Position numbers and translations under genes: made by a program. From Trichoplax sp. H2 (Eukaryota): a stretch of DNA of 64,000 nucleotides. The notes under the pieces were generated by a model. That model was not told the origin of the DNA. It searched no databases and was given only the letters and a program-made list of their open reading frames with translations. The stretch spans positions 1 through 64,000 of the forward strand of contig NOWV01000186.1 of the NCBI GenBank assembly GCA_003344405.1, in the 5' to 3' direction. Positions 27,464 through 63,509 of the stretch are shown here, one piece after another; the first letter of the stretch is position 1, and each line of letters starts with the position of its first letter.

Positions 27464-29278
27464 ATGGACACTATTTCGTTGAATGAAGAAGATTGTCCAA
27501 GTAGTAGTAGTATTAGCCACGGATACAGCCTAGAATCCATTGAATTGAGAGACAATCTTGAATATGATGCTGATGATCACGAGTGCCTCCTGAAATTTAC
27601 CTCCCGATTTATCAATCGCCATATCCAATATGAGCTTAATGCTAAAGCTTTTCAATATTACTTGGATAAAGTAGACGATTCGCCTGGGCCTACAACGTAT
27701 TATTATCTAGCACGTTGCTATCTCTTTGGTTACGGTATAGAGAGAAATCTTGAAGACGCTTATGAATTTATGGTATCAGCAGCTCAACTGCGCCATCCGG
27801 ATGCATTACGCGATTTAAGCTTATTATTTAGCTGCCCATCGACTCTCCATCATACTCAAACTTTCAGAACCTATACAGTCAGCGATTACAATTATAAACG
27901 ACTCAAAATTACATCATTATTAATGTCGGCATCGCTAGGCAGTTATAATCAATCACTTCAAGATCTTTTCAATTTATCGCAATTCATTTTTTGGCAAGAT
28001 ATGATTTGCCATTTAGATTGTATTTATACCAATTTAATCGATCGTTATTTCGATGGAGATGAACGCCACTTAGTTGATCTTCAACAAATTGCCATGCGTA
28101 ACTCTAAATTGTTACAAACTCACTCAAACTCCGATGATATGATTGATCGTATCTACAGGGACACTGTATTAACAACAGAAAATGAGCTCTTTCAAGACGC
28201 TAAAAATTTCTCTGAAGAAATTATCGCTGATATCTGCAATCAATTAGGCATCTTACGCTATATTAAAAGCCTTCAACCGACGGAAATTCATCACAAGGGA
28301 GAATTATTAGCAGATGCATTAAAGTATTTTCAATGTGCAGCTAAATTAAATTGTGCTGCGGCTTACTTTAACATTGCAATTTATTATGATGAATTTATTC
28401 ACTATCGTCACAATATGACTGTAACAAAACTGCAACTAATGATGGAAGCTTCCGCTCGTGGCCATGCACTTGCACAATATGAACTTGGCTACCATTATCT
28501 TAATTCTATGTCCGAACAAGAGCAGGTTCAAGGTTGGCTATACTTGATGCTATCATCAAAATTGGGCTACTCTGACAATTTATACCTAGTTGGCATGAGC
28601 TATTTGAGAGACGATTGCCGTATATTTGATAAGAAAAATGTATACCTGGCAAAAACTATGTTTAAATTGGCTATTTTTAGTCTTGAAATTCCTAGTGCAA
28701 AGTATTCTAAAAGGGAATGTTTTCAACTTGGATTTGCATATCATCACAGCTTATACTTAGACGACGTACATGATAGTCTATTATACTTTGATCGATATAG
28801 ACTTGCTGCTCATTTTTACGCTTATGCTATTAAGAATCACCTCAATTTTTACTTGCCGTGTTGCTATTTAGCCAAGTTAATAGAAAAGCGCCGCATCTAT
28901 CCGTATGCTATTGAATATATTATAGAATTATATAATCTGGCCATCTGTGACGATGATATCGCTGTCAAAGGATATGCATGTTATCGTTTAGGTAAAACTT
29001 ATTCCAATCAATCCAGTGGTACCTATTATAATCCGTCAAAGGCTAACGAGCACTTTGCCAATGCACTCTGTCATTTTAAAAATGTTAAAGATTCAATTAG
29101 CGGCCAATACCATTATGCCAATATGCTTCTGCAAGGGCTCGGCGTTGTGAGAGACAGAAGCAAAGCTATCGAAATTTTAAGTACTATTTGTAACCGTATG
29201 CGACATTTTGGCGATCCCTATAAATCCTATCTACAATCTAAAGCAGAGCGCAGATTAAGTCAATTAATTAAACACTAA
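27464..29278 (+). CDS. SLR protein 1, single module (604 aa, intronless)
   Basis: SLR motifs YYLARCYLFGYGIERNLEDA, AQYELGYHY and YHYANMLLQGLGVVRDRSKA. Family motifs GYSD, AAHFYA, LAKLIEK, YACYRLGKTYS. Confidence 0.85.
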   Translation: MDTISLNEEDCPSSSSISHGYSLESIELRDNLEYDADDHECLLKFTSRFINRHIQYELNAKAFQYYLDKVDDSPGPTTYYYLARCYLFGYGIERNLEDAYEFMVSAAQLRHPDALRDLSLLFSCPSTLHHTQTFRTYTVSDYNYKRLKITSLLMSASLGSYNQSLQDLFNLSQFIFWQDMICHLDCIYTNLIDRYFDGDERHLVDLQQIAMRNSKLLQTHSNSDDMIDRIYRDTVLTTENELFQDAKNFSEEIIADICNQLGILRYIKSLQPTEIHHKGELLADALKYFQCAAKLNCAAAYFNIAIYYDEFIHYRHNMTVTKLQLMMEASARGHALAQYELGYHYLNSMSEQEQVQGWLYLMLSSKLGYSDNLYLVGMSYLRDDCRIFDKKNVYLAKTMFKLAIFSLEIPSAKYSKRECFQLGFAYHHSLYLDDVHDSLLYFDRYRLAAHFYAYAIKNHLNFYLPCCYLAKLIEKRRIYPYAIEYIIELYNLAICDDDIAVKGYACYRLGKTYSNQSSGTYYNPSKANEHFANALCHFKNVKDSISGQYHYANMLLQGLGVVRDRSKAIEILSTICNRMRHFGDPYKSYLQSKAERRLSQLIKH

Positions 29279-30519
29279 TAAACAATTATCTTCTTAAATT
29301 TATTTCTTTCTGTAAAGTCCTACAAATGAATTGGTTCTTCATGAACAGAACTGTTGCTCTGATCATAAATAATAAATCAGCAGTAGGGTAATTAAAAATC
29401 GAGCCGATAGAATAAATAATGGTTATATTGTACATAGGACGATATCAGCCTTAACACAACTTATCCAGAGGATATACTTGATTATTTGTTACTCTTACAA
29501 AGTGTATAGCAAGAATTTCATTAATCATGCTTACATAAATTTAATTTTTCTATCTTCTTTGCATTTAAATTTAAATATGATAATTTAGACAATATAGCAG
29601 AATTTTCATCTATACTGTAGCGCGGTTTTGTTGCATAAAAATACAATATACTACCAAGATATATAATCATTGCCGCATTTCTAGCATTCTTAATCCTTTA
29701 CAAGCGAAGTAGCATTACTGAAATATGGCAATCTGAATTAATAATTATGAGCATCGGCGTCTTAAGAAGCATATTATATATTTATTCTTTTTCATACAAT
29801 GACTAATGTTGCGTGACTACCGCAAGCATGTTTTTGGCCGCCCACTTTTAATGTTACATTTAAATAGAATAATAATAAGAATAAGAGTTTGTTCAGTTTT
29901 CATAATTGATAATGTCAGTTATCTGACAGCGTATATTTTGTGTAATTAGCATACAGTATAGCAGAAAGAACAGAGCAGTAATTAGTGACCATATAAGACC
30001 ATAGTCTTGAAAGCAATTGTGGATTTGCTATCTTTACTTACAACATAATATAGTACAATTCAATTTCTCTGAGAGAAAAGTGATCGATTTTAAAATTTGT
30101 CTTTGTCCTTATTATACCACGCTAATAGTGACAATAAATTAATTTTCTGGTTATTGCAAGCGATTTTGTAGTTGTGTTATTAGTTTAAGTTAGAATAGAA
30201 TACCCCAAATCTGAAATCGGATTAGACAACAAATTGACAGTACTTAAAAATAGGCCGATAGCTTTAGTATTTGTACACAGATACGCTCAAGAAGTATCCA
30301 GTAGATAGCAAAAATTTTCATATTGTAAGACATGCATTGCTGGTCTATAATCATCCATTATTGCCAACTTTAAAATTTATTATTTCATGATGATGGTAGT
30401 AAGAAATCATTTTTCACTTAAATCAAGCTTAATTCATTTTGATACTTGCTATAATTGACTGAAATTTAATAAAGGAATCAACTATTACAAAATCTAAATA
30501 AGTTATACAATATAATGAA

Positions 30520-33500
30520 TCATTGGCGCTGCATAGAATCTTTTAGCATATCCAGCTTATTTTGACATTTCTTCAGGTAATGCTTAATAAAATAAACGTT
30601 GTTCTTACATTTACATCGTAATCCACACGAATAAAACTGTTTTGCCTTATTTAAATCTTTCCTTCGACCGCAACCAAATTGACACATTACACCTAAATAA
30701 TAATTGGACATACATGAAGTTGATGAATAATGTGAATGATTACGATAAAATAACTGAAATGCGCTGTTATAATGTTCGTTTGCCATATTTTGGCTATTGA
30801 TATTTGAGTACTGTTCGCATCGACTATAAATTTTTCCTAATAAATAATGTGCGTAGGCTGAATAACAGTTATCCTGAATGTAGATAGCTGATTGACATAG
30901 CTTTATCGCATCATCTAATTTATTTTTTGCTTTAATGTGATCATGGATGATTAATTTAGCTAAATAGCATCGACTTTTTGCATCCTCCATTTGATAAAAG
31001 GCATCAATAGCATAATAATGAGCAGCTAATTCGTAATGATTACTAGATGACCAATAATATTGATAGATCAAGCCTAATTCAGCAATGGGTAAATCCACTC
31101 TGTAACATCCTAATAGTTTATCCGATATGGATTGATGCAATAGTTGACGAGCCAGTTCGACATTTTTTGGACCCTGATATTTTAATGTTATTGCTAAATC
31201 AGCCATTGCATCAGGGAAACCAAAATTGGCTGCATTGGTGACACAGCTTGCTTTCTTTTCATCGTCCTTAGTATTTTCGTCACTACGATCGCATTTACTA
31301 TTATTGGTGTTGCAATGGATAAAGAACATTCGATTAGCTCCAGGGTGATTTAATTCAGCAGCTTTGTGATATAAATTGATATATTTCATTTTATTGTCAG
31401 CCAATTTTAGTTTAAGTTTAGTAAATGCATATAAAAATGTTCCTGCTGGATTTCCCAATTTCATTGATTCTTCAAGATGTTTCAATATTTCCTTGACAGC
31501 TTTCTGATCAGGCATTTTATAATTTAATTCTTTAACCATTAGTAAAATACCCATTTCTGCATGATATTTACTAGATGTCGTATTATTTAACCTTTTATTG
31601 ATAAAGCCTAATATTTTTTTATTAAAGCATTTAGTTAAATCTTTGATCCTTTCATCGATGATATCGCGCCAGCATGAATAAGCTTTCAAACGATCTTGCA
31701 TAATATCAATAGCACGAATTGATCCATTTAACGCTGCTGTTACTAAATTTTGTAATTGTACTGTTGCCAATTCTCTAGCAGTAGTAAATACTTGATAATA
31801 GAGTTGTGGACAGTCGCCGTCTTCTTCACAACCATATAAAAATGATAAATTAATACTTGCCATAGGACAATATAATTCAGCAGCTTGACTATAATATTCA
31901 GCTGATAATTTGAAATCTTTAACAGCGCCACCAAGACCATATTGATGCAACAAACCTAACTTATAATATGTAGCAGCATTGGGTTTATCTTGCAATTGGG
32001 TTTTAGCACATTGGAAATCGAATCGAAAATGTTCAACTGTTAACTGTTTACTGTAATATCTTTGGCTTATTTGATAAGCTTCCATCATTAATTGAATAGG
32101 TGAGTATCCCCATAATGTTTTAATTTCTTTATTTAACCAGTTCAGTTGATCATATAATTTGGCATTATCAGCATCTGCTGCAACTAGAATTTTACCTCGT
32201 AGCCAAGCTTTTATAGAGTAAAATCGATTTAAATAATTGTCAGTAAAATGAGCTCGAGTAATATAGAAATTGCGCTGAGGTGCTAACACAGGAATATGGC
32301 TACTTGTATTAGTGCATGATCCATCTTCCATCAATTTAGAGACAACATAGCGATCCATAGCCGCTGGTTTAACTAATAAAGCTTCTTCATTAAAGCAACT
32401 GAATGCAATATCCATATGCAAATGAACAGATACAGGCTGATAAAATGATAAATGTTGATATTGTTGCTGGCCAATAATTCTACCAAGCCTGTAATGACAA
32501 TATGGAGCAACTTGTGTTACATGTGAGTAAGCGCCATACTGATATAATTGGACAGCATCATTAATATTGCACTGAGATAATTTACCTTTTTCGATTAATT
32601 TAGCTAAACGACATAAAGCCAAGCTAATATCATGATGTGGATAAATCGAGGAAGCGTAAAAATGTGCCGCTGTAGTAATATTGGCTTGAACCCCAATACC
32701 AAATTCATACATTAAGCCAAGGTAAAAATATTCTGTTCGATCAACTGGACCAGCCATACTTGGAGGATTGACAATAGCTTGAAAAAAGTAATCTTTACCT
32801 TGATCAATATCAATATAAAATGGTTGGCCATCATTAAAGTACATAGAACCAAGTTGATTATAGACGTCTGAATAGGGTAATGCTTTTATATAATTTTCTA
32901 CGTAATATCGATGTTTTAAGATATTCCGTACTTCATTTCGACTTTCTCTCATACTTGCTTTCAATTTTATAGCAGCTAATGGACAGCCACGCAAAACAGC
33001 TCGATGGTAATGTTTAATTTGATCTAATTCTTGTAAACTAACTTCATTGCCATGACATAATGGAGTATCCAGCTCAGTATAAAATGCATAATTCATATCA
33101 CCACGTGGATCCCCTAGTTGGCTTGCTTTCTTGAAATAATCGAATGATTTGGCAGGTACGCGAATGTCTTCATCACTAGCTTGATCACGAAGTTGATCTA
33201 AAGTATTGCACTTATGGATCAAGTATTCAAGGAAGCCCAAACAGTTATATGAATCAATCAATATAATTGTATTCTGCTTTAATTGCTTAATAGTTTCGTA
33301 ATTTTGCTCTCTAAATTGATTGATTTCTTGGCGCCAATCTTGACTTGATCGATACAACGATCTTAATGCTTGAATAGCATCAGAATGGAGCCCAAAAGCT
33401 GCCGCTTTAATTAAATTATTAGCGTGTTTCTTAGCTAATTGTTGTTGATCGAGATGCTGATCATCAGATTGAATTATTTTGTCCCTATCTAATTGAAATA

Positions 33501-33861
33501 AGCCGTAATAAGCTAAAAGATGATTTCGTTGGGCAGCCTGATTATAATGGTATTCACTTTGTTTTTTATCGATTCCAATGGAAGAATAACCATGATGAAA
33601 GTAGTAACCGAGTAAATAATGGCTATGGGAATCATCGCCATGTTGTAATTTAACATGACAATCTCTCATAGCCTGGTCGTATATTTCAGTTGTTAGATGT
33701 TTTTGAATGCATTTAGTTGCAATTTTGTTGATTTTATCTCCAAATTGTTGAAAAGTAAAATCCCATTGCGTTGATACTTGCCGTTGAATTAGCAAAGCAG
33801 GATCAGGTGCAACCTCGTCATCATCAAAAGATGATGATGATGATGAATAATTCATCATCAA
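30520..33861 (-). CDS. SLR protein 2, double module (1113 aa, intronless)
   Basis: SLR motifs LGLMYEFGIGVQAN, LGLLHQYGLGGAVKDFKLS and LGVMCQFGCGRRKDLNKA. The LAKLI..YxLG block occurs twice, and the second module starts near 32140. Confidence 0.88.
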   Translation of the reverse strand: MMMNYSSSSSSFDDDEVAPDPALLIQRQVSTQWDFTFQQFGDKINKIATKCIQKHLTTEIYDQAMRDCHVKLQHGDDSHSHYLLGYYFHHGYSSIGIDKKQSEYHYNQAAQRNHLLAYYGLFQLDRDKIIQSDDQHLDQQQLAKKHANNLIKAAAFGLHSDAIQALRSLYRSSQDWRQEINQFREQNYETIKQLKQNTIILIDSYNCLGFLEYLIHKCNTLDQLRDQASDEDIRVPAKSFDYFKKASQLGDPRGDMNYAFYTELDTPLCHGNEVSLQELDQIKHYHRAVLRGCPLAAIKLKASMRESRNEVRNILKHRYYVENYIKALPYSDVYNQLGSMYFNDGQPFYIDIDQGKDYFFQAIVNPPSMAGPVDRTEYFYLGLMYEFGIGVQANITTAAHFYASSIYPHHDISLALCRLAKLIEKGKLSQCNINDAVQLYQYGAYSHVTQVAPYCHYRLGRIIGQQQYQHLSFYQPVSVHLHMDIAFSCFNEEALLVKPAAMDRYVVSKLMEDGSCTNTSSHIPVLAPQRNFYITRAHFTDNYLNRFYSIKAWLRGKILVAADADNAKLYDQLNWLNKEIKTLWGYSPIQLMMEAYQISQRYYSKQLTVEHFRFDFQCAKTQLQDKPNAATYYKLGLLHQYGLGGAVKDFKLSAEYYSQAAELYCPMASINLSFLYGCEEDGDCPQLYYQVFTTARELATVQLQNLVTAALNGSIRAIDIMQDRLKAYSCWRDIIDERIKDLTKCFNKKILGFINKRLNNTTSSKYHAEMGILLMVKELNYKMPDQKAVKEILKHLEESMKLGNPAGTFLYAFTKLKLKLADNKMKYINLYHKAAELNHPGANRMFFIHCNTNNSKCDRSDENTKDDEKKASCVTNAANFGFPDAMADLAITLKYQGPKNVELARQLLHQSISDKLLGCYRVDLPIAELGLIYQYYWSSSNHYELAAHYYAIDAFYQMEDAKSRCYLAKLIIHDHIKAKNKLDDAIKLCQSAIYIQDNCYSAYAHYLLGKIYSRCEQYSNINSQNMANEHYNSAFQLFYRNHSHYSSTSCMSNYYLGVMCQFGCGRRKDLNKAKQFYSCGLRCKCKNNVYFIKHYLKKCQNKLDMLKDSMQRQ

Positions 33862-37052: not shown

Positions 37053-40000
37053 TTACATAGACTGCTGGAGGGCTTTTGCAGCCTTATTTCGATATCGTAA
37101 TCTTACGAAATCGTAATCAGCTTTGGACATGTCTATCGTTTTCTGATAGAATAGCATAGCCTTACTAGAATTAGGATTTGTACCATAGCCACATTTGTAC
37201 ATTTTGGCTAAAATATAACAATCGCGACTAGCATTTTTACTGGATATTAACACATTATATTGAAATTGTCGATAAGCCATCCGAAAGTGCGACTTTGCTC
37301 GATCAAGATCGTAAAATTTATTATTCTGTTTATTGGAATAAATTTTACCTAATCGGTAATGAGCAACTCCGACATGTTGATCATTGATATAAATTGCCGA
37401 TTGATATAGTTTAATCGCATCTAAAATACTTGCTGCTGGAATCTTCTTCTTCTCGATCAACTGACCTAATAGAATACGCCCTTGACAATCGTTTAACTGG
37501 TGTACAATTTGAGTTGAATACCAATGCCTTGCTTTAATATATTTATTGGTACAAGTACTTTCACATTCATATATAATTCCAAGAAGATAATCTGGTAAAA
37601 TAGTTGGGATAACTTGATGATGATCTTCTACCATAGCTCTTTCAAGTGTTGAGATAGCCTTATCTAAATTGATTTCAATACCAAATCGTCCGTCAATCCG
37701 CCCTAATGCTATCACTAAAGTCGATAATGCATCGCCATACTTACTACCATCAATTAGCAATTGGCGTACTTTACGATCGTCCATGGTTAATTTTTCACCT
37801 GCGAATATTAGTTGAACTAACTGCAATTTAGCGGCAATATAATCCAATTTGGCTGCTTTCATAAGATAAGCTTGGGCATCATTCTTTTTATTTGAGCCTT
37901 TAAAATATTTTTTGTCCAATTTTAATTTAAGATAGCCAAGATAATAATAAGCTGCTGGATCATGTAATTTTGCTGCTTTATTGAAGTGATTGATAATTTC
38001 ATAAACAGATAATGAGTTTGGTTGATCGAAAATAGCTTCTCGAATCATGAGTAATATCCCTAATTCGACCTGCAATTTTGTCAATTCATCATGACTTAAT
38101 TTTCTACTTTTACCGTGGCGATAGCTCTTTTCTCGTGTCTTAATACTGGCATCAATTAACTTACTCCAAGCTGGTTTATCTCGAACTTGTTGATCGATAT
38201 AATGCAAAGAATTGATGTTACCCATATAAGCGGATTGTAATAATAAGTCCAGACGATATTCTGCACATTGCTTAGTGCTAGAATACACTTGGCAGTAATT
38301 TGTAGGATCATCACCTTCTTCTTCGCATCCAATCAACAATGCAAGCCCATGATAGGCTAATGAATGACCTAATGCAACAGCTTTATAGTAATGATTCATA
38401 GCTATAGCAGGATCTTTCTTGACAGAGCCTAAACCATTGCGAAAGTAATAACCTAGCTGATAATGGACATTCATATCATCAGATTCTTGCAATTTCTGAC
38501 GATATTTACGGTAGGAATAATCATATAGTTTAGTCATAAAATCACTAGAAAGGTAGCGTAATGCAATTCGGTAGGATGACCACATAATCTCTTTTGGTTT
38601 ACTTTGCCATAAATTTTGAATTTCATCATTCATTGATGTAATATTCTGGATAATTTCTTGCCGTTGTGTAGGTTTCATCCCTTCGTATTTTAATTTAGCT
38701 TTAATAGCATAGTATCGATAATCTAATGATCTATTATAATATTCGCTTGCTGCATAATAACAGGCAGTTGGATTTGTTTCATTTTCTTGATTTGTATCTA
38801 TTGAATAAATATTGCCTTTTATGTAATAACTTATTGGGCATGGTGAAACAGCTTGAAGTAATTTATTGGCCATCTGGTAGTAAAAGCTAGCTTTAGTGGT
38901 ATCAAATCCCATTTCATGACTAATTAATCCTTTGCTACACATCCTACCCAATCGATAGCAAGCATATGCCGATGCTAGCGGTTCTAATTTTAGGCAAGCA
39001 CTTTGATAGAGTCTAACTGAATCAAGGAGTGTTGATCGAGGTACAGTTTCTTTTTCAATTAATTTAGCTAATAGGACCATAGTTATAGGGCATTTACTCG
39101 ATTTTAATAAGGTAGCTGCATAATAATGAGCAGCTTGTACTTTATCAATCCCAGTACCGACACCTAGTTGGTAAAGATAGCCTAAATAGCAATTATGTCG
39201 AGTATCTGTGGGATAAAGACAACTAGGATTGGCTGTTAATGCTCTCTCTAAATATTCCCGAGCCAATTGATGATCGTATTGCCATCCTTGGCGTGGCTCT
39301 AAGTAGGTATAAGCCAATTCTCTCAAGATATCAGAGAATCCGCCAGCTTTAGCAGCTTTTATCAATAGCCCTTGTGATATTCGATTACTATCAACGTTAT
39401 CTGGACGTTGTAAATTTAAAGCTAAATGCAGACTAAACCAGCCTAGTGGGTGATCTTTGATAGCTGATTGTATGAAACAACTCATAGGGTAAAGATTTGC
39501 TTCCTTTGTGTTAATAGAGCTGGAATCGGTTAGAAATTGTGGCGATAACATTTTCCTGAAGGCATAATTAAAATAGCCCTGGCCATCACCTAATTTAGCT
39601 GCTTTTTGAAAGCAGTCGTACGCATAACGTGTTGTTTTGTCAACAGAGGTAATTTTATCAGTGGTCAAGTTATCCTCATCGATGTTTTCTTCATCAGAAT
39701 TATCATCGTCAGTTTGACTAGCATGAATGAAACATTCAATAACACCAAGGTAATTATATAATTCTGCTATAGTCGATGTGTCAGTAGTTTCATCAATAGC
39801 AGTTTCGATATCATCCTTAATTTCTAGCAGTTTATTTCTCCAAAACGGATGACTGTTATATTTACTTCTCAACATTTTTCCAGCATAATAATGTTGACCG
39901 TTAACAACTGCATCCATTAATAATCTCACTTTAATGTCAATGAGTTGTTTTTCATCTATTTTTTGTATTGATGACGATTCTTGGTGATCTATATTTGAAT

Positions 40001-40379
40001 CGCAATCATACAAAGTTGACATGTCGTGACAAGCTAAATGATGGTGTCGCTTAATGGCTTCTTCGTAATACCGTAGCGCCTCAACACTGTCTTTCTTATC
40101 TATTCCAAGCCCATGTTGATGGTAATATCCAATTTGGTAATAAGCATGGCAATGATCATTGTCTTTGATTTTTTGCATATAAGTCTGATAAGCTGTTCTA
40201 TACAATTTATTCATTAATTCTTCATTACGATGTATTTTTAAAATCCTACTGACATCGTTATTTAATTGTTTAGATTGACAATTCCATATTGAAAATAATT
40301 CAGTTCTTAGCCAATTCATGATAGAATTAACTTGTAATTCATCTTGTGGATGAAATAATGTAGTAATACTTGTGTTCAT
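37053..40379 (-). CDS. SLR protein 3, double module (1108 aa, intronless)
   Basis: SLR motifs IGYYHQHGLGIDKKD, LGYLYQLGVGTGIDKVQA, LGYYFRNGLGSVKKD and LAKMYKCGYGTNPNSSKA. Second module starts near 38630. Confidence 0.88.
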   Translation of the reverse strand: MNTSITTLFHPQDELQVNSIMNWLRTELFSIWNCQSKQLNNDVSRILKIHRNEELMNKLYRTAYQTYMQKIKDNDHCHAYYQIGYYHQHGLGIDKKDSVEALRYYEEAIKRHHHLACHDMSTLYDCDSNIDHQESSSIQKIDEKQLIDIKVRLLMDAVVNGQHYYAGKMLRSKYNSHPFWRNKLLEIKDDIETAIDETTDTSTIAELYNYLGVIECFIHASQTDDDNSDEENIDEDNLTTDKITSVDKTTRYAYDCFQKAAKLGDGQGYFNYAFRKMLSPQFLTDSSSINTKEANLYPMSCFIQSAIKDHPLGWFSLHLALNLQRPDNVDSNRISQGLLIKAAKAGGFSDILRELAYTYLEPRQGWQYDHQLAREYLERALTANPSCLYPTDTRHNCYLGYLYQLGVGTGIDKVQAAHYYAATLLKSSKCPITMVLLAKLIEKETVPRSTLLDSVRLYQSACLKLEPLASAYACYRLGRMCSKGLISHEMGFDTTKASFYYQMANKLLQAVSPCPISYYIKGNIYSIDTNQENETNPTACYYAASEYYNRSLDYRYYAIKAKLKYEGMKPTQRQEIIQNITSMNDEIQNLWQSKPKEIMWSSYRIALRYLSSDFMTKLYDYSYRKYRQKLQESDDMNVHYQLGYYFRNGLGSVKKDPAIAMNHYYKAVALGHSLAYHGLALLIGCEEEGDDPTNYCQVYSSTKQCAEYRLDLLLQSAYMGNINSLHYIDQQVRDKPAWSKLIDASIKTREKSYRHGKSRKLSHDELTKLQVELGILLMIREAIFDQPNSLSVYEIINHFNKAAKLHDPAAYYYLGYLKLKLDKKYFKGSNKKNDAQAYLMKAAKLDYIAAKLQLVQLIFAGEKLTMDDRKVRQLLIDGSKYGDALSTLVIALGRIDGRFGIEINLDKAISTLERAMVEDHHQVIPTILPDYLLGIIYECESTCTNKYIKARHWYSTQIVHQLNDCQGRILLGQLIEKKKIPAASILDAIKLYQSAIYINDQHVGVAHYRLGKIYSNKQNNKFYDLDRAKSHFRMAYRQFQYNVLISSKNASRDCYILAKMYKCGYGTNPNSSKAMLFYQKTIDMSKADYDFVRLRYRNKAAKALQQSM

Positions 40380-51000: not shown

Positions 51001-51556
51001 AGCATTTTACTATTATCATTATTCGCATGTAAATAATCGATATGAGCGTGCTGCTCATTTTTGTGCGCTGGATATGAGTCAGCAACTGGACGATGGAAGA
51101 ACTCGATGTTTGATGGCGAAGATGCTTGAAAAGCGACGTCTATCATCGAGTAGTTTAACGGATGCGATCAAAATGTATTTATCTGCATTGTATCTGGACG
51201 ATAACCTTACTGGCTATATACATTATCGACTGGGTAAGCTGCGATCGAATCTATCTGAAATTGATGTCTATGATCTAAAGTTGGCTCAGCAACACTTTCA
51301 TCAAGCTCAACATTACATGAGAACGACCAAGACAAGCAATATTGTGACCAAATGCCGGGATATGTACCATCTCGGTTTGATGTTTGAACATGGCTTTGGT
51401 GTTGCTCAATGTATTGAAAAGGCTAAAGAATGGTATAAAAGATGCTATCAGTTTCAGAACAATTGCCATACCATTTTTGGCTGTCATCAGATTAAGTATT
51501 ATATCACAAAATCAAAGAAAAGATTGAATATTTTAGAGGCTGATATAGAAGACTGA
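48023..51556 (+). CDS. SLR protein 4, double module (1177 aa, intronless)
   Basis: SLR motifs LGYYYQLGCGNLKIDLNKA, LGFMYEQGLGVERDTIKA, IGNLYFRGQG and LGLMFEHGFGVAQCIEKA. Second module starts near 49955 after an extended linker. Confidence 0.88.
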   Translation: MDLDDQWLVSQYECFEKEIADLWQLSQDELKDHILKIAQSYLRPEISNALYAKAIKNCQQRIEIAASTNQPNPHAHFQLGYYYQLGCGNLKIDLNKAKYHYEQAILHDHYAAMYQICSLYGELEHEENGHHDTNPTTQQQYVEMIDRNKLISMKLKMYIRAAAYGLHEKAIRDLRHYYLQYREWIRAIDQLKAEYEEQIETAIDKNINIAEVYNNLGFLECFLEWCQVVEGDEGDEPLVDFPQQAYDYFLKAGELGLASGYMNFAFYRGYDANCVDQETNGIKNNFMIMAKYYLKAAQNGCAISWQKLYDVLKTEFKSCVPKRNLLKYVRNALKHYRFSDMLLAMANNFMTQNSIEMASFSHAIQYLEEAVVSCHSYSTDDLRNEFLYLGFMYEQGLGVERDTIKAAHFYAWSITTQCECTLAVCRLAKLIEKNHLPPPHDITHAIKLYESTMLLIKQDVTSYAQYRLGNLFHSGRYENLGILPDMAEYHYDGTSNAMISLILSGKATAAHIYHLAKMHAVGCMVDPAIEKAIDLYSNALAYYKNADYHDRFHAIKAKLQLQKIKNRHQLNYKERNNQLHIKEINSNGQFSSSELFMNPLDQAYYDKEADQLQNKFVNAPSSSKLSINSIDKSYYSEQINLLHSELDSLQLPSPSKLLMNCINIAEQYLSQNVELSYRQPIYNKIMAELNDQPTASTFYHIGNLYFRGQGFQQFDLPLAMEYLKKAADMNHPLAKLDMLYLYGCQEKGDDPSLSYKITDTAEELAKIELTVILDTAYQGDRRALTYLQKRLELFHAWNIAVDNLIKHHKNELTSQVKNLKSTDLARLCLELGFLIMAKNLEKDHLNEKIITEIETYFQKAENLDNSRVDFFMGLLCEFTAYSHPNAQNDEHCAIKYYERALKAGNNHLSPTIATYYLHGQCNNDHLLNQSALDLLQQSHHNGFADATSQLSMIYLDGRCDTQQDFQRFTQLAEIALATTYSNDIDNTFLYYHLAFYYYHYSHVNNRYERAAHFCALDMSQQLDDGRTRCLMAKMLEKRRLSSSSLTDAIKMYLSALYLDDNLTGYIHYRLGKLRSNLSEIDVYDLKLAQQHFHQAQHYMRTTKTSNIVTKCRDMYHLGLMFEHGFGVAQCIEKAKEWYKRCYQFQNNCHTIFGCHQIKYYITKSKKRLNILEADIED

Positions 51557-52799: not shown

Positions 52800-52900
52800 G
52801 TCCGTCCAGTCCATGTCCAAGCCATGACTGGATTGGACTGGAACGGAACGGTAAGGTACGCTAGCGTGTGATTGGCTAATTCGAAATAGCGAATAAACAC
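52800..52900 (+). promoter_or_regulatory. Candidate cell-cycle-type promoter of the forkhead gene
   Basis: Reverse CCAAT boxes ATTGG at 52832 and 52871, CHR-variant TTCGAA at 52880-52885 and forkhead-type site ATAAACA at 52893-52899. Confidence 0.45.
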
Positions 52901-53431
52901 GTTACACTAGGCCATGAAGGAGTTACAGGCAGTATGTTGTATGTATTGCGAAGTAGCGTACGGCACAGTCAATAGAAGGAAAAGACCAGGTGAATTTTTG
53001 GTCATAAACTATATGAGTGCGCCAACATGTATACGCGCTCATACTGTAACATATTGCAAGCAGATCATAGCCGAAGTGTCGAGCAGATTCCATGTGCTAC
53101 GCTACCGTCACTCTGATTTACCGTACTAAGTACAGTACTACAGTACAATTGTCGGTTACAATAGACTGTAGCCTATTGTCATCAACATATTCAAATTCAA
53201 ATTTTAGCAGGTAAAAAGCGGTAGGCAAAAGCTCGCTTAGCTGGCTGCGATCCTCTTCCCAATTCAAGTAGAAAGCGCCATCAACAAGAAGTAAAATCTT
53301 CTCTTATGTGATCTTAGCCATCAAAAACAAATTGAAAACTTGAGGTATCATTCCACGATCATTATCAAGAGGATCTAATTACCAATTCGATGCTAGTATC
53401 GAAGGGTCGATTCCAATTCAAGTAAAGAAAG

Positions 53432-56069
53432 ATGCAACAAGATCAGAGCAATTACGATGATGACGCTCTTAGCGATATCAATTGGCTAACAAATTTACAA
53501 CCTACCCATCTGCATAAGAATCGCAGTGATCGTTATGGCCTTGGCCAGTGTAGTAAAATGGATAACACTATCAACCAACCTCATCATTATTATACGCATC
53601 GATCACAACCGTCGACTTCGCGTTGCGGTATTAGTGAACCACCGCCCGAAGAAGTTATTGTTATGAATAGGAAATATGTCAAACCGCCTTATTCTTATGC
53701 TAAATTGATCACCATGGCCATCGACAGTACAACCGATAAGAAAATGCTCTTGAAGGATATATACGAATGGGTCGAAACGAAATATCCATTTTATAAGTAT
53801 ACTTCAAATAAAGGATGGAAGGTTAGTTTAGAGTGGATATCAATGGAAATGATGCATAGTCAAATCAGTCAGGTGCAGTGAGATGGATGACCAATACAGT
53901 AGATTCTATCTCTGCTTTCCAAAGACTGCGCCTAGAGCATTTTAAATTCATTTCTACAGCATAACCATGGACAACATCATACACCGTACTTGTAATCGAC
54001 AGTCATATAATGGCAAATTTTCATGTAACACACTATCTGAACTAGATCCCACTATTTCGACACACCTTCATAAGACCACTAGTAAGAGTGGCTTATGAGG
54101 CCTTAACATAACCATAAAGCCTTAACAGTCAATACGGTACCAATCATGCTGTACATTTCCAACCTTGTATTATTTATCATGTGTAATTTTATTCCATCAT
54201 TTTCTAGTATACAAACACATCTATTGAAGCAGTATAAGTAAAGATGCACTTGTACAACATGAAAAATTCATTATTTCAGTAATGTTACAGACTGTAGCCA
54301 TCTATTTCTTAGTAAGAAATCTTGCTAAGCCATAACACCATCCAATTCATCGACTTCGCTGAATACAGTAGAATAGGATGGTAGATGAAGTCACAATTTT
54401 ACTTGTTGAAATTTTTAACGATAGTCATGAGTAATTAATTACTAGACACAAATACAATTAGGTCATGTACAATCTTTAACTTAATGCTATAATATTTGAT
54501 TGTGCTATAGTGTATTCTCTAAAACCCATTCAATATTAATATGGTAAATTCAATTCCATCCGGTCAATAAAAGTAATATCTTGTATCGTTAGGAATGATG
54601 TTTTTCAATAGTTATCTTAATATGTGCTCTATGCCTTTAGCTAAATATACAGTATAACGTTCTTACCAATCTTCTTATTATTGTTCATATTTCAATAATA
54701 GAACTCCATACGTCATAATTTATCCTTGAAGCCTTACTTTATTAAGTTGGATCGTAGTGGCCGCGTTTGCAATTCGTCAGAAAGTAAAGGTTGCTATTGG
54801 ATGCTCGCACCATCGATGCAAAAAGAAAACATCCCTCCTGGTCAGCACATTATAACTACTGCTAATAAATTAACAAACATTTACACACAACCAAAAAATA
54901 ACCTGATTCCTACTGGCTTGCCGAATAAATCTGGTAAAAATATACCGACGGCATTAATTGCTACCCCTTTATATGCTGTATCAGACGGTAGCAATGATGA
55001 TCATAATAATAAGCGTGTTATCCCTATCTTACCCAAGGGTCTTCCAACATTTTACGTCTTAGCTTCTGTACCAACGTCCACTTCTGTTAACAGCGAAGCC
55101 ACATCATCTGAACCAATTACAACTATAGCTAGTACATCGCAAGTAAAAGACCTCCACTATGTAGTCGATAATCCCTCATTATTAGCTAACTCTCAATGTA
55201 CTGCATCAGCGCCTCAAGCTAATTTATCAAGCAACAACTACTACATTAACGATAATTTCCCCAATTCTAGCGTTACAGCTAGTTTAGGAACTTGCACACA
55301 AAATAACTCAGACGATATCAAGGCTTGGAATGATGATTTAAATGTGCCTTTCAGTAGAAAAAGACCAGGCCAAGAGATTTCGTCTGTAAATAAGAAACAA
55401 TGTGATAGCGGTATCATGGAAGATTCTACAACTACATTAGATGTCGAGAAATATGAAACTCCCAAGAAGAAAGACAGAGCTTCTACCACTATCGATGAAT
55501 CGACCTATAAAACTCCTATTAGAGCATTACAAGATGTATTTCCAGAAAACATTGTTTCATCACCGTTGGATACTTTGTCAACACCCAACGTTAATGCGCT
55601 ATTAAAAACTGTTAGTAGTAGTTGTAGGAAAAGTTTAGATAAGTTTGAATCATCATCATTTTGGAGTGAAATGGAAGCTGTAGCAGGTATGGCCACGTTA
55701 TTCACTACTCCTGTACGTTCTAGTAGCAAGAGAAATAACGATCACGAAACTACGCCTTTAGTAAGGCAGCAACCTACTTTAGCTGCTTTAAATGACAAAT
55801 CCAAAATAACTCCAACCAAAAATCAAGATAATCGGATTAACTTTGATGATTTAAGTTTAACCCCTTATCTGAAGACGATATTAAATACTAGTACATCTGA
55901 TAGTGGAATTTTTAGCTTTTCCTCGCCAACACGTTCTCCTAAGAGTATTCATGAATCTACGTCCTTGTTATCGCCTGCCGAATTTGTCAAGACCCACGAT
56001 TTGAAAGAGCTAACTCCTAGAAAGCCAATTCGTAATCGAGGTCGTCGATCATACAATATATCACAATAG
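53432..56069 (+). CDS. Forkhead transcription factor, most FoxM-like (2 coding exons, 585 aa)
   Basis: Exon 53432-53821 splices (GTTAGT...AATAG) to 54702-56069, joining KPPYSYAKLITMAI...LKDIYEWV...KGWK to NSIRHNLSL...KGCYW. Upstream LSDINWL motif and a long S/T/P-rich tail. Confidence 0.92.
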
Positions 56070-57516: not shown

Positions 57517-59181
57517 CTACTCTAATAATGTTAGTAGTGACTTTCGTTGTTTAAGTGCTTTTTGTGCGTAATGTTTATCATAAACAGAACTAGTTATTTC
57601 AGCAGTTCCAATCGCTTTTTGATAATTAATCACGGCTGCATCCAAATCTTTTCTGACCCCTAAACCAAATTGATATATTCTACCTACATGGTAGTAATCG
57701 TCTGAGTCTTGGTCAATTTTTTCCTTCCTCTTGGATCGAAATCGATCCAAAGCATACTCATAGTGGATTTTTGACAACCGAGAATCGTAATAATTGCAAT
57801 AACGATCATTTGAATAGATTTTACCCAGGCGGTAATGCGCATAGCCGTTAATATTATTATTATTATCTAATTCAATAATTTTCATGTATAACTTGATGGC
57901 TGAGGAAATGTTTAAATTTTGTAATTTCTTTTTTTCAATTAACTTTGCTAAAAATAAGTAGCATTGTAAACAATTGGCCATTAGGATACCAGAGGCGTAG
58001 AAATGCGTAGCTTGCTCAATATCTATGGATAGGCCTAAACCTTTATGATATATATAACCTAATTGAAAATATTGACGACCTTCGTGTAGATTGTCGAATA
58101 GATTAGTAGCAGCAATAGCCCATTCAAAATAATCTTTGGCTAAATTTAAATCTTGAGCAACACCTAATCCATTCAGATAAGCTAATCCAACATGATATAA
58201 TATATCAGAATAGCCGTAGCGAGCCGATTTCAATAACAGTTTTAGTGCTTCAGAATAATCACGATTGGTAGTGGGTGTTTCAGTTTGGTACAGGATTGCT
58301 AACTCAAATTGGGCTAAACAATGGCCTTGATCAGCTGCCATGATATAATATTGGATATTTTCACTGTCATGCGTTGTAGGAGCTGGACGAGGAGAGGATA
58401 AACCAGCAAATTTATGAACAGCTAAGTTGTAGCTGGCCGCCGGTTTACCTAGTTGCTTTGATTTTTCAAAATAGTCATAGCCACGTTGTAATTGGCGATC
58501 GCTCTTTTCTTTTTCATGATTGCATTCAGCGGTAATAACATCTAAGATACCAAGTTCATTATAGATATGACTCAATTGATTGGTATTCTCAGTTGTATCA
58601 ACTGATTTTTCTAATGATTGGTAATAATCATCAATGACTGAACGCCAATTTTGTGAATCAGCGTAAGAGTCTTTCAATTTTCGATAAGATTGTGTGTATT
58701 TGCCTTCAGCAGCAGATTTGGTCAGCATTTTCACTTGCTCTTCGATACTTTCTATTAAAGTTAATTGATCAATGTCTACATCATTATAATTGCCATAGCG
58801 ATCTTGAACTAATTGAGCTAACTGATAATAAGCACCAGGATGATGATCTTCAATTGCTAAACGATAATTTTCCATTGCTTTATGTTCATCCTTTTGAACT
58901 GGACCTATACCATAATGATAATAATATCCTAATTGATAATATTTATGCGAGTTATCTTCGACATCATTGCGAATACTGCGCGTTAACTGTTCTAGCGAAT
59001 TCCTATGCAATCTCTCATCAACCCCATCTAATAAATAATTTCGAGCAATTTTGATGGCGTCTTCATCTAAATCGTCTAATGTATCCTTGAATTTGATTGT
59101 ATTACTTGACGATGTTCTGGATGATGGCCCACTTCTTCTAGCTTGAATCACGATACGAAATCGTGTAACAGGAAAATCCAT
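57517..59181 (-). CDS. SLR protein 5, single module (554 aa from the first ATG, intronless CDS)
   Basis: SLR motifs LGYYYHYGIGPVQKDEHKA, VGLAYLNGLGVAQDLNLA, LGYIYHKGLGLSIDIEQA and VGRIYQFGLGVRKDLDAA, plus GYSD, LAKLIEK and YAHYRLGKIYS. The ORF-track GTG start overlaps a possible splice acceptor at 59283-59284. Confidence 0.87.
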   Translation of the reverse strand: MDFPVTRFRIVIQARRSGPSSRTSSSNTIKFKDTLDDLDEDAIKIARNYLLDGVDERLHRNSLEQLTRSIRNDVEDNSHKYYQLGYYYHYGIGPVQKDEHKAMENYRLAIEDHHPGAYYQLAQLVQDRYGNYNDVDIDQLTLIESIEEQVKMLTKSAAEGKYTQSYRKLKDSYADSQNWRSVIDDYYQSLEKSVDTTENTNQLSHIYNELGILDVITAECNHEKEKSDRQLQRGYDYFEKSKQLGKPAASYNLAVHKFAGLSSPRPAPTTHDSENIQYYIMAADQGHCLAQFELAILYQTETPTTNRDYSEALKLLLKSARYGYSDILYHVGLAYLNGLGVAQDLNLAKDYFEWAIAATNLFDNLHEGRQYFQLGYIYHKGLGLSIDIEQATHFYASGILMANCLQCYLFLAKLIEKKKLQNLNISSAIKLYMKIIELDNNNNINGYAHYRLGKIYSNDRYCNYYDSRLSKIHYEYALDRFRSKRKEKIDQDSDDYYHVGRIYQFGLGVRKDLDAAVINYQKAIGTAEITSSVYDKHYAQKALKQRKSLLTLLE

Positions 59182-60310: not shown

Positions 60311-61841
60311 GCAGGCCGTGGTAGTAGTACTACTATAAAATGGCTTTTGGGTTCATGGCGTAATCCAAGATTGTATTTGGAATATTGATTGATTAGGGGA
60401 AAAATGATTTATTTGTACAGTAGACTGGATAGATCATCGTATGCAGTTGTTCAGAAGGCGCAATGCAACAATATTATGGCTACTCCTAACAGCTGCGGCA
60501 CTAGCCAAAATGATGTCATCAAAAGCCATTAATACGCTACGGTCAAAAAAAATAATAATAAACAAACTTCAATACAGTTCCCTATAGTGATACAGTAGAG
60601 GATTTGCTGGTTGTTGAAGCAGTAAAATTGTGACAGTATTGTCACTTGATCCAGTACTCCTCCTCCTCTATTCTACAGGATAAGACTCCAACGAGAAGGA
60701 AAGACAAGCTGAAAAAGAAACTCGACAAGTGCTTCTACTCCAATTTTCGACATATGCCTACGAGAAAAGAAGATTGCGCAAGTAACAACGAAACGCCATT
60801 GGTGCTGAGTTCACATTGACTGAAACTTTCATAAGCTATCCCTGGTGAAAAAGAGGCAAAAACACTCAGTACGCCAATCGAGAAAAGTAAGAGGGAATAT
60901 ACCGCTGTCATTTGATGTTGATCGATCAATATCATTCTAGTCGTCAATAGCTTTACTATGATGACATGATAGCTTAGTCGTTGTTGATCAAGAATGAAAT
61001 GTCTTATTCCATACATTTGTGCTCTGTTAGGATGATTTGACGGTCTATTATGTTAAAATTATTTCATCACGATAGCGACAGGTAGTGAAATAACCTTGTA
61101 GGATTAGGATTGATAGGCAACGGCTGAGGAGGTACACGTATGGATTCATATCTACAGTAGATTCTACACCTTTTGAGTGATGAAACTACAACTCTTTGGA
61201 TAGAGTCAATGGAGTGCTTGTAGGAATCAACAACTGTAATGTATTTTCCTGTCATAAGATTGTACAGAAGGTACAGGAGAAATACACTGCGTAGTCTTAG
61301 ATCAAGATCAGTTTATTGTTAATAGATGTTAAATCATGCCATTCCAATCAGTCACAAGCAAACGGAATAGTTTAGCAACGGCTATTGGAAACAATCCTAC
61401 ACTATAAAATGAATACTCATGACCAAGACAAGCGCCAAACTTTCCCTTGAGTACATACGTGCAATTTGAATCTTCTACTTTTAAAAACAACATAATCGAC
61501 GTGATACGATGAACAGCAATATACTGTACAGTACTTAGGGTAGCCCACGGATAACAATCATTGATAACTACCTGACCATAAAGAGATTCAATACCTTACA
61601 TCAATGACTTAATCAATAGACAGACGAGCGTACATGAAAGGATATTTTCAACGCTCTTACGTACAATCCTATCATTTACTCTATAAATAATATCAATTTA
61701 CCAGAAATTGCACTATAGTCACGGTACAACAGTAAGTTGAATTATCTCCCTGAAAAATTTTCCTAATCGTTTCTACAGTATAGGTACCATCGCTTGCGCA
61801 AGGCTACAAGTTAACCGCAACAGCTATAGAATTGAAGCAAA

Positions 61842-63509
61842 ATGAGAGATATTTGGTCCTCCAATATTGGTATAATCACAGAATCAGTTGAATCAGAAAT
61901 ACTCGAGGATGATAATAATGAAGACATTGACGACCTCACCCAAGATATTACCTTTGATGATCTCCTTGAAGAAATTGGACATCATGATATTTTATTACTT
62001 TATCATCATCAACATATCATGGATCAACTGTATAGTGAAGCTTTCCAAAAATTTTTACAACGTACACAAACCTCTAATGATGCTCACGCACATTATAACT
62101 TAGCTTATTTCTATTATAATGGTCATGGTGTAGCAAAAAATTACAATCTTGCTTTCTATCATTATCAGCTAGCCGCTAAACAAGACCATCCTGGTGCATT
62201 ATACAATATATGCTTACTGTATGGTATTGAAGGAAATACATCACCACAAAATGTTCGCTTCATGCCACCTGACAAATTAGCTGAATTTAAAGTCACTATG
62301 TATGTTCGATCAGGAGCTCAAGGCCAATATACAAATGCCTATAGTAAATTAGTCGACAATTATCAACAGTCTGAGCTTTGGCAAGTAGCTCTCAATAAAT
62401 TATACGAACTATATTTACAGCAGATTCATTGTACCGACGATCATTCTGATAATAACCATGAAATAGCCAGTCTCTACAATCAGTTAGGTTTTATATGCAT
62501 GGTAAAATATAGTGCCAACGATGATTCCAGCGCGTTATTTCAAGCCAATCGCTTCTTTCATCAAGCAACCCAATTAGGTAATCCATCAGCCTATTTTAAT
62601 TTAGGCTTTTTCAAGTATGGTTTTGCATGTAGTCCAGACAAAGACAGAGAAAAAGAGATAGAAATGTTGGAGATTGCAGCTCGAAATGGTCATACATTAG
62701 CACAGTATCAGTTAGGCTATTATTGGCGTACTACGTTAAAGAGTCAAATTGAAAATTGCCGAAAGTCTTATGAATATTTCCAGAAAGCGTCTGTCCATGG
62801 CTATTCAGATACTTTATGTAACTTAGGATTTTTGTATGTCAATGGTATTGGTGGCGTTCAACAAGACTTTCAACTTGCTGTCGACTACTTCCGAACTGCG
62901 TCAGTGGTGGATGAACTAGCGTGCACGCAGTACGCCAAAAGAGAATGCTTCAGTTTAGGATTTATGTACGAACATGGTATCGGCGTGCCTGTCAATTTAA
63001 TGTTAGCCAGCCATTTTTATGCATATGGAGCAACTTTTCAATTAAATAGTAAAAAATCACTTTGCCATTTAGCTAAATTAATCGAAAAAGAGCACATAAC
63101 CCCATCATTCATTCGAGATGCTATTGAATTATACCAGCGTGCGATTGCTTCCAACAATCCATATATTTGTGGTTATGCTAACTACAGGCTAGGAAAGATA
63201 TATAGTAATCTAAGATTTGATGGATACTTTGACGAAGAGAAAGCGAACTGTCATTATCAGATAGCGCTAAATTGTTACCAAACCTATCCTAATCTGTTAG
63301 GCGAAGGCGGTGCAGACCACTACTACCATTTAGCAACATTATACGAAAAAGGTTACGGTGTCAGTATTGACTTTGAAAAAGCAAAAAACTATTACCTTCT
63401 ATCAATTAAAACTGCAGAAGAAAGGGTAGATGTCTACCAAGACTACTATGGTCAAAAAGCTAAAAGACGCTACAACGCCATCATCACCCAAATTGATACA
63501 GAGTCTTGA
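61842..63509 (+). CDS. SLR protein 6, single module (555 aa, intronless)
   Basis: The most canonical SLRs of the set: AHYNLAYFYYNGHGVAKNYNLA, LGFLYVNGIGGVQQDFQLA, LGFMYEHGIGVPVNLMLA and LATLYEKGYGVSIDFEKA. Also GYSD, LAKLIEK, YANYRLGKIYS and an acidic N-terminus. Confidence 0.9.
   Translation: MRDIWSSNIGIITESVESEILEDDNNEDIDDLTQDITFDDLLEEIGHHDILLLYHHQHIMDQLYSEAFQKFLQRTQTSNDAHAHYNLAYFYYNGHGVAKNYNLAFYHYQLAAKQDHPGALYNICLLYGIEGNTSPQNVRFMPPDKLAEFKVTMYVRSGAQGQYTNAYSKLVDNYQQSELWQVALNKLYELYLQQIHCTDDHSDNNHEIASLYNQLGFICMVKYSANDDSSALFQANRFFHQATQLGNPSAYFNLGFFKYGFACSPDKDREKEIEMLEIAARNGHTLAQYQLGYYWRTTLKSQIENCRKSYEYFQKASVHGYSDTLCNLGFLYVNGIGGVQQDFQLAVDYFRTASVVDELACTQYAKRECFSLGFMYEHGIGVPVNLMLASHFYAYGATFQLNSKKSLCHLAKLIEKEHITPSFIRDAIELYQRAIASNNPYICGYANYRLGKIYSNLRFDGYFDEEKANCHYQIALNCYQTYPNLLGEGGADHYYHLATLYEKGYGVSIDFEKAKNYYLLSIKTAEERVDVYQDYYGQKAKRRYNAIITQIDTES

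Follow-up and report, generated by a model that had tools for sequence, protein, structure and literature searches.

Six genes coding for Sel1-like repeat (SLR) proteins, none with an interrupted reading frame, lie in Trichoplax sp. H2 among animal genes that carry introns. We asked whether these genes descend from a bacterial founder, from a retroposed copy or from a family native to the host. The stretch analysed, hereafter the window, comprises 64,000 nt of contig NOWV01000186.1 (forward strand), with the features under study at 27464-63509.

Six uninterrupted SLR reading frames among animal genes

The 64-kb window contains 7 ORFs of at least 250 aa, namely six SLR ORFs (S1 to S6) and exon 2 of a Forkhead gene (Table 1). 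The SLR ORFs run uninterrupted for 554-1177 codons each, all contain Sel1 repeats, and all six passed the gathering score of Pfam Sel1 (PF08238), their scores being 35.6-96.2 bits where 30.7 is required. In full-length comparisons, whole deposited protein models matched the ORFs at 100% for S3, S4 and S5, and S1, S2 and S6 were 99.5-99.8% identical to TRIADDRAFT_51443, 51444 and 51449, respectively; therefore, the annotators, too, took S1 to S6 as single-exon coding sequences. An in-frame stop is found 6 nt 5' of the S6 ATG. S1 carries an insert of about 50 aa within the helical linker region, and for its orthologues P0004 and P0005 the identity is 64%. When the six proteins were compared with the window by tblastn, none of the 62 matches revealed an additional SLR fragment or pseudogene outside the six ORFs, and no recognisable gene was present at 40.4-48.0 kb.

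Table 1. Positions of the SLR genes, the S6 leader and the interleaved Forkhead gene in the window
Feature	Position	Strand	Description
S1, single-unit SLR gene	27464..29278	+	604 aa; 99.5% identity to TRIADDRAFT_51443
S2, double-unit SLR gene	30520..33858	-	1112 aa; TRIADDRAFT_51444
S3, double-unit SLR gene	37053..40379	-	1108 aa; 100% identity to P0040
S4, double-unit SLR gene	48023..51556	+	1177 aa; linker of ~50 aa joining the units
Forkhead gene, interleaved, not of the SLR family	53426..56069	+	two coding exons, intron ~53820-54699
S5, single-unit SLR gene	57517..59181	-	554 aa; 99.8% identity to TRIADDRAFT_51448
S6, non-coding 5' exon	60652..60886	+	from RNA contigs; true 5' end undefined
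S6, 5'UTR spliceosomal intron	60887..61778	+	892 nt, GTAAGA to TTTCTACAG, GT..AG
S6, single-unit SLR gene	61842..63509	+	555 aa; 99.8% identity to TRIADDRAFT_51449

The first-pass annotation had described the SLR genes as interleaved with real animal genes, six introns being assigned to each P450 coding sequence and one to the Forkhead gene, and this picture held. The Pfam Forkhead match is spread over two ORFs (53426-53881 and 54702-56069), RNA contigs from two runs stop at 53819 and one begins at 54700. The Forkhead joint is not among the 15 splice joints listed (53 more exist), and this gene is a weak control only. Two nearby P450 genes could be detected in at least five and at least six pieces, consistent with seven exons each. 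Two nearby Rho/Rac-type GTPases are single ORFs, as had also been remarked; since their coding sequences are likewise intronless, the lack of introns is not diagnostic of transfer.

The array is integrated, expressed at S4 to S6 and spliced at S6

RNA evidence came from assembled contigs of random-primed libraries rather than poly(A) reads and covered S4 to S6. Colinear contigs were found for S4 (47842-50550 and 50572-52037), for S5 (56940-59449, spanning the entire ORF) and for S6 (61779-64000), while the intergenic region at 44.0-47.3 kb had a depth of 0-2.3 in the same runs. In a DNA-like run of a different study, depth was uniform over genes and spacers at about 110x.

The S6 transcript starts with a non-coding exon in which a short uORF is the sole reading frame. 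The joint from 60886 to 61779 was present in all three RNA runs and absent from the single DNA-like run, the contigs coming from X8 and X15. S6 is thus not an intronless gene: its 5'UTR is spliced and its coding region is uninterrupted. The earlier description of the SLR genes as intronless therefore stands for the coding regions of S1 to S6 and fails for the S6 gene as a whole.

These data also bear on an artefactual origin, in which bacterial contamination or a chimeric assembly would have fused SLR genes to animal genes. The Forkhead-S5 junction is tiled by independent runs (RNA contig 54700-56455 overlapping DNA-like contig 56131-59794), the DNA-like depth is even, S6 is spliced, and the T. 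adhaerens loci 51443-51450 are numbered consecutively on a single 13.26-Mb scaffold, which implies the same gene order. The first-pass annotation had judged simple contamination unlikely and had left room for chimeric junctions; tiling, depth and splicing contradict the chimera, and we give this explanation practically no weight. No point in its support was found. Junction tiling, RNA contigs and S6 splicing show that S4 to S6 are integrated and expressed, which is expected of a native gene as much as of a transferred one.

A fixed unit of about 550 aa defines a family found in placozoans

We compared a family profile built from 12 units (550 positions) with 1.84e9 representative proteins and inspected the best 150 of 124,879 matches. 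Among these 150, 22 covered at least 490 of the 550 positions with 208-629 bits per unit, in a single stretch except for two that matched in two adjacent co-linear stretches. The other 128 reached at most 86.5 bits per domain; they pile up on profile positions 51-125 and 226-375, corresponding to the canonical Sel1 repeats, and seldom touch positions 126-225 or 401-550. No full-architecture relative from outside placozoans was present among the best 150; a weak one below about 200 bits could be hidden further down the ranking. Word-index searches separated the family (at least 645 bits) from the best outsider (177 bits), missing most paralogues, including S5.

Eighteen family clusters were looked up. 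All 13 that bear names belong to Trichoplax adhaerens or Trichoplax sp. H2, spread over 7 different T. adhaerens scaffolds; the remaining five are contigs without names, for which any organism is possible as source. The SLR family with the ~550-aa unit thus appears to be placozoan-only, as far as the searches reach. No homologue with this architecture from a non-placozoan animal or a choanoflagellate was seen among the best 150 of the 124,879 matches, and its absence counts against vertical descent being regarded as positively shown.

In each unit, an N-terminus that is disordered and mostly acidic precedes an alpha-solenoid of the SLR type with about 25 helices; two segments are specific to the family and include the signature AAHFYA...LAKLIEK...YRLGKIYSN. 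Paralogues share merely 22-32% pairwise identity. The dispersed ones include TRIADDRAFT_60256, 55171, 55173, 56576, 57674, 57740, 61740 and 61821, and some of the dispersed paralogues have long C-terminal tails, one being named Myosin-11 by its depositors. Six family locus tags, four of them array members, were mentioned in no paper found, and literature on Trichoplax or placozoa with HGT, Sel1 or intronless/single-exon genes yielded no description of the SLR family.

The AlphaFold2 model of S6 (pLDDT 84.7, pTM 0.81) is all-helical. Residues 1-46 form a disordered acidic N-terminus, after which 25 helices build an alpha-solenoid whose best Foldseek matches are SLR proteins; the predicted model therefore has the alpha/alpha-repeat solenoid fold of that class. 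A hydropathy scan revealed no signal peptide or membrane segment in the SLR proteins, with Kyte-Doolittle 19-aa window maxima of 0.98-1.47 and N-termini that contain no signal-like hydrophobic region. We infer that the proteins may be soluble scaffolds of the cytosol, with partner proteins docking along the groove of the solenoid.

The array arose by local expansion

The family tree was calculated without outsiders because these can be aligned over the generic repeats only. It splits array members from dispersed paralogues with 100/99 support, and for the double-unit genes support is 98/96 for a clade of a-units and 100/100 for a clade of b-units. S2 gave two profile matches, both full (604 and 621 bits). 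These results support the origin of the array by local expansion, as the first-pass annotation had suggested for the descendants of the founder, and the ~1100-aa genes derive from one internal doubling of the ~550-aa unit.

Origin of the founder gene

The founder had been suggested to come from a bacterium. In its ancient form, this explanation has a bacterial or protist SLR gene entering the placozoan stem, adapting to the host, gaining UTR introns and promoters and growing to about 18 or more genes, which would fit the intron-free coding regions in an intron-rich neighbourhood as well as the missing animal counterpart among the best 150 matches. SLR-only proteins are also far commoner in bacteria, and the top match of the profile among solved structures is bacterial (6ok3, 112 bits). 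However, LceB (108 bits), EsiB (100) and human SEL1L (99) score nearly the same, and this similarity of bacterial and animal structures speaks against a bacterial origin. Neighbours in feature- and structure-based atlas look-ups were mostly bacterial Sel1 clusters; they were discounted, the method itself warning against reading them as transfer. The closest homologues of a transferred gene should be bacterial, while here they are placozoan, and no donor-like protein emerged, the best outsider domain among the best 150 having 86.5 bits compared to at least 208 in the family. The taxonomic profile proposed as a check likewise did not lead to bacteria: six of the ten nearest outsiders are named, and all six are kinases of Tritrichomonas, a parabasalid and thus a eukaryote. 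A prokaryote genome scan with S6 returned five loci from mixed phyla that matched sections of S6 at 26-47% identity; Rickettsiales were not among them, a weak negative as this mode detects close relatives only.

Composition points the same way. Recent transfers are expected to deviate in composition or codon usage, but the SLR ORFs have host-type codon usage (pooled RSCU against 8 neighbouring host coding pieces, r=0.905; GC3 0.24-0.31 versus 0.29-0.41 in the neighbours). The absent signal peptide and the intronless Rho/Rac coding sequences also weigh against ancient transfer, which we regard as quite improbable, and the bacterial founder of the first-pass annotation was not supported by these comparisons. 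Placozoans carry intracellular bacteria, and an extended version, in which a single bacterial or protist SLR capture gave rise to all 18 or more genes as a domesticated, fast-diversified cytosolic toolkit against such bacteria, seems very improbable. Domestication would there mean that the genes acquired introns in their UTRs, the codon usage of the host and fusions to coiled coils. In the accessible text of a published screen of T. adhaerens for bacterial genes, none of the 12 LGT candidates is an SLR gene, a further point against ancient transfer (PMC3641634), and in the main text of a metazoan HGT compendium Trichoplax appears in the reference list only. Overall, the sequence held no positive sign of horizontal transfer, and no donor outside animals could be identified.

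Under retroposition, an SLR paralogue with several exons would have been copied back into this locus from its processed mRNA, would have acquired a promoter and a 5' exon there and would then have been duplicated in tandem. Retrogenes commonly have an intron in the 5'UTR behind an exon recruited from upstream, a pattern that S6 resembles; every coding sequence of the array is single-exon, and all array members fall on the same side of the family tree. In addition, the H1 and H2 gene models disagree in the tails of four dispersed paralogues, hinting at multi-exon structures. These differences nevertheless fall outside the SLR module, so that the module may be single-exon throughout the family, and a poly(A) remnant or target-site duplication is not expected to survive at the present level of paralogue divergence. 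We consider a retroposed array founder unlikely on balance. Such a founder would not conflict with the family being native.

The explanation that we favour, with a probability of roughly 70%, is that of host nuclear genes in an old tandem array of a placozoan-only SLR family whose founder module was intronless. S1 to S6 would be nuclear genes of Trichoplax and, together with TRIADDRAFT_51450 just past the window, would constitute one old array of 7 genes. A unit would have doubled once within a gene, and the resulting two-unit gene of about 1100 aa would have given rise to the local duplicates S2, S3, S4 and 51450, with S1, S5 and S6 as array members that have a single unit. The founder may already have carried a single-exon repeat module, acquired early on the placozoan stem through either retroposition or the loss of introns, and we propose that the coding regions are intronless because of this.

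Significance and comparison with known systems

This locus is a case in which intronless genes with bacterial-looking repeats can imitate horizontal transfer. Giant repeat proteins of bacteria and protists inflate the scores of repeat proteins compared with them, so that these genes would be flagged by an alien-index test; scored per domain and judged by architecture, S1 to S6 instead fall into a placozoan-only family. To placozoan biology, the analysis contributes a newly defined, fast-diverging SLR family of at least 18 genes, seven of which form the array. The family has a fixed unit of 550 aa, which also occurs doubled once, and its members are candidate lineage-specific protein-interaction scaffolds. 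The result touches no long-standing open question. Independent gene-family expansion has been reported as a main mode of placozoan genome evolution, and the array resembles such lineage-specific expansions, although the word "Sel1" does not occur in the main text of that report as available (PMC6067683).

Among non-placozoan proteins in the best 150, the Tritrichomonas kinases with long Sel1-repeat tails had the top per-domain scores (at most 79.7 bits among those named). Unlike the array family, they combine a kinase domain with numerous uniform repeats and match profile positions ~230-450 only; their likeness may owe much to a similar AT-rich amino-acid composition.

SEL1L/Hrd3 (8kes, 9og0, 6vk3) shares with the array proteins Sel1-like repeats arranged in an alpha-solenoid (profile 90-99 bits; Foldseek E 2e-10 with the S6 model), and several family members bear database names such as "HRD3A" because of this likeness. 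SEL1L/Hrd3, an ER-luminal adaptor in ER-associated degradation, has both a signal peptide and a membrane anchor, neither of which is present in the array proteins, and the match is confined to the canonical repeats and extends neither to the segments specific to the family nor to the 550-aa unit. Orthology with SEL1L/Hrd3 was rejected on the missing signal and anchor and the unmatched family-specific segments.

The best structural and profile matches are the bacterial SLR proteins, for which we compared Oxalobacter 6ok3, Legionella LceB (8sxq) and LpnE (6deh), E. coli EsiB (4bwr) and Helicobacter HcpC (1ouv). They are SLR-only and of similar size, like the array proteins, but their identity to the S6 model is 16-21% and their profile scores are on a par with those of animal SEL1L. 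Bacterial SLR proteins of this kind are typically exported, whereas the array proteins have no export signals and S6 has the spliced structure of a eukaryotic gene.

SLR genes in the window are real, expressed host genes

Results showed that the window is Trichoplax DNA, as three of the six Sel1-like-repeat (SLR, Pfam PF08238) ORFs, S3, S4 and S5, are 100% and S1, S2 and S6 99.5-99.8% identical to deposited Trichoplax protein models (including TRIADDRAFT_51443, 51444, 51448 and 51449), all carried by one 13.26-Mb scaffold. The 64 kb contain seven ORFs of at least 250 aa: S1-S6, all six passing the Pfam Sel1 gathering score, and exon 2 of the Forkhead gene. Upstream of the SLR ORFs are two P450 genes, with at least five and at least six recognisable pieces, compatible with seven exons each. 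The ORF and Pfam matches thus bear out the first-pass annotation, which had described intronless SLR coding regions beside multi-exon P450 genes and a split Forkhead gene. As two Rho/Rac-type GTPases also lie on single ORFs, intronless coding regions are not confined here to SLR genes.

Table. Positions of SLR ORFs and neighbouring genes in the window
Feature	Position	Strand	Description
Rho/Rac-type GTPase gene	14116-14700	-	single ORF, 194 codons stop to stop
Rho/Rac-type GTPase gene	22752-23390	-	single ORF, 212 codons stop to stop
S1	27464-29278	+	Pfam Sel1
S2	30520-33858	-	Pfam Sel1, two units
S3	37053-40379	-	Pfam Sel1, two units
S4	48023-51556	+	Pfam Sel1, two units; colinear with RNA contigs 47842-50550 and 50572-52037
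Forkhead gene	53426-53881 + 54702-56069		DNA-binding domain match split between two ORFs
S5	57517-59181	-	Pfam Sel1; colinear with RNA contig 56940-59449
S6	61842-63509	+	Pfam Sel1; colinear with RNA contig 61779-64000; 5'UTR intron

Three random-primed RNA libraries (X8, X11 and X15) and a genomic-DNA-like run (X1) were mapped on 44001-64000; the RNA evidence consists of assembled contigs, not poly(A) reads, and covers S4-S6. X1 depth was about 100-125 in 27 of 30 bins, while RNA-run depth was 0-2.3 across the gene-free 44.0-47.3 kb versus 5-56 across S4, S5 and S6. S3 and S4 are divergent, and the 7.6 kb that separate them (40400-48000) held no ORF above 85 codons and no SLR remnant; RNA cover was almost nil in the part examined (44.0-47.3 kb).

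A joint that links 60886 with 61779 and leaves out 892 nt bounded by GT..AG (splice sites GTAAGA and TTTCTACAG) was present in all three RNA runs and absent from X1. Because an in-frame stop lies six bases upstream of the S6 ATG, this intron sits in the 5'UTR. S6 therefore has an intronless CDS, yet it is not an intronless gene, and the earlier description of "intronless SLR genes" holds for the coding regions only. The Forkhead splice joint was not among the contig joints listed for 44001-64000. The Forkhead-S5 junction is spanned by overlapping contigs of different studies (54700-56455 with 56131-59794), which speaks against a chimeric assembly and confirms that SLR genes lie among animal genes. 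Taken together, the SLR genes are real, expressed host genes, one of them spliced, with RNA cover coming from S4-S6.

We also observed a satellite-like block rich in GTACAGTAC-type motifs at 59800-60250, in the interval from which S5 and S6 diverge, and likewise at 24547-24597; X1 depth over the block reached 2000-3800x versus about 110x elsewhere, and its many contig joints and loose ends indicate a highly repeated genome element. A second repeat is probably present upstream of the Forkhead gene at 52005-52671, where X1 depth (about 270x) is roughly double that of the surroundings; an RNA contig connects 59842 with 52342.

A candidate placozoan family with local expansion

A single unit of about 550 aa is common to all the paralogues; S2, S3 and S4 carry two each and are mutually colinear. 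Conserved blocks in the 12-unit alignment A1 include AAHFYA, LAKLIEK and YRLGKIYSN. The paralogues are old, with 22-32% identity. Orthologue-like proteins of S1 and S6 (64-65% identity) occur on other contigs, so divergence among the paralogues long predates the split of the lineages to which these orthologues belong.

An exhaustive search with the family profile in 1.84 billion representative proteins gave 124,879 matches at E up to 0.001. The best 150 were inspected, 148 being rescored locally and the other two, the family proteins P0002 and P0004, being rows of A1. Of the 148, 20 covered at least 490 of the 550 profile positions, with 208-629 bits per unit; the match was continuous in 18 of them and fell into two adjacent co-linear stretches in the other two. 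The remaining 128 were long proteins with many repeats, in which no single domain exceeded 86.5 bits; within these best 150 of 124,879, such outsiders concentrate on the canonical Sel1 repeats (positions 51-125 and 226-375) and rarely touch 126-225 or 401-550. Among 18 family clusters looked up, 13 were named, all from Trichoplax adhaerens or Trichoplax sp. H2, and the named members are spread over seven T. adhaerens scaffolds; the other five clusters came from short contigs. The family counts at least 18 genes in Trichoplax. TRIADDRAFT_51450 (1080 aa, two SLR units) adjoins S6 just past the window end (>64000) on the array's scaffold, so the array holds at least seven genes; one RNA contig covering S6 extends 715 nt beyond that end.

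Some dispersed members, encoded outside the array, have long C-terminal tails, and depositors named one of them "Myosin-11". In four pairs of T. adhaerens and H2 models, each pair for one paralogue (P0045/P0188, P0055/P0191, P0159/P0196 and P0094/P0195), the SLR module is identical and the difference lies in the C-terminal tail or an 81-aa tail block, a pattern suggesting that exon calls become uncertain past the SLR module, itself a single exon.

The local expansion proposed earlier is supported by an unrooted maximum-likelihood tree of 30 units (14 array-side and 16 dispersed rows, none dropped), which separated array and dispersed members at 100/99; for the array to be a clade, the root must fall outside it. 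First and second units of the double genes formed clades of their own (98/96 and 100/100), with S2 and S4 as sisters in both, which means that the unit doubled once within a gene and that the whole gene was then duplicated locally.

In the literature searched, none of six locus tags from the family (four belonging to array members) was mentioned, and we found no description of the family under Trichoplax or placozoa combined with Sel1, HGT, intronless or single-exon. Supplements of placozoan genome, single-cell and HGT-compendium papers might list these genes. Judging from the best 150 of 124,879 matches, the family is a new subfamily, restricted to placozoans, within a well-known class of repeats.

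Test of bacterial transfer as origin of the family

We asked whether the founder gene came from a bacterium, as the first-pass annotation had proposed with a retroposed founder, still hypothetical, as the alternative. Bacterial and animal SLR structures score alike against the family profile (6ok3 112 bits, LceB 108, EsiB 100, SEL1L 99). Sel1 clusters in an atlas look-up were mostly bacterial, reflecting the abundance of SLR-only proteins there and giving no sign of transfer. The taxonomy of the profile matches also went against the proposal: among the best 150 of 124,879, full-architecture relatives were only placozoan, the named ones being Trichoplax, and of the ten outsiders scoring highest per domain, all six named clusters were Tritrichomonas kinases with Sel1 tails, the rest comprising one functional name from a metagenome and three without names. 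S6 against 185,579 prokaryote species genomes, a scan detecting close relatives only, gave five partial matches (26-47% identity, mixed phyla), none in Rickettsiales. Codon usage was host-like, with r=0.905 between pooled SLR genes and neighbouring host coding pieces (GC3 0.24-0.31 versus 0.29-0.41). The screen of T. adhaerens for bacterial genes by Driscoll et al. 2013 (PMC3641634) lists 12 large-scaffold candidates (BPL_N x2, DapF, MurA, RsmE, PhrB x4, GNAT x2 and MhpC), which include no SLR gene. All tests together gave no positive evidence of transfer. A very ancient transfer may nonetheless lie at the origin of the family, as no non-placozoan animal relative was identified among the best 150 of 124,879 matches.

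Predicted fold and comparison with known SLR proteins

In the AlphaFold2 model of S6 (pLDDT 84.7, pTM 0.81), 25 helices follow an N-terminus that is disordered (residues 1-46) and has a net charge of -15. No signal-like N-terminus or hydrophobic segment was found in any of the six proteins (maximum 19-aa hydropathy 1.47). Most likely, S1-S6 encode soluble solenoid scaffolds that act in the cytosol in protein-protein interaction. The nearest named outsiders to the family profile, among the best 150 of 124,879 matches, are the Tritrichomonas kinases, in which Sel1 repeats form tails. The best Foldseek matches of the S6 model are SLR solenoids of bacterial proteins and of SEL1L/Hrd3.
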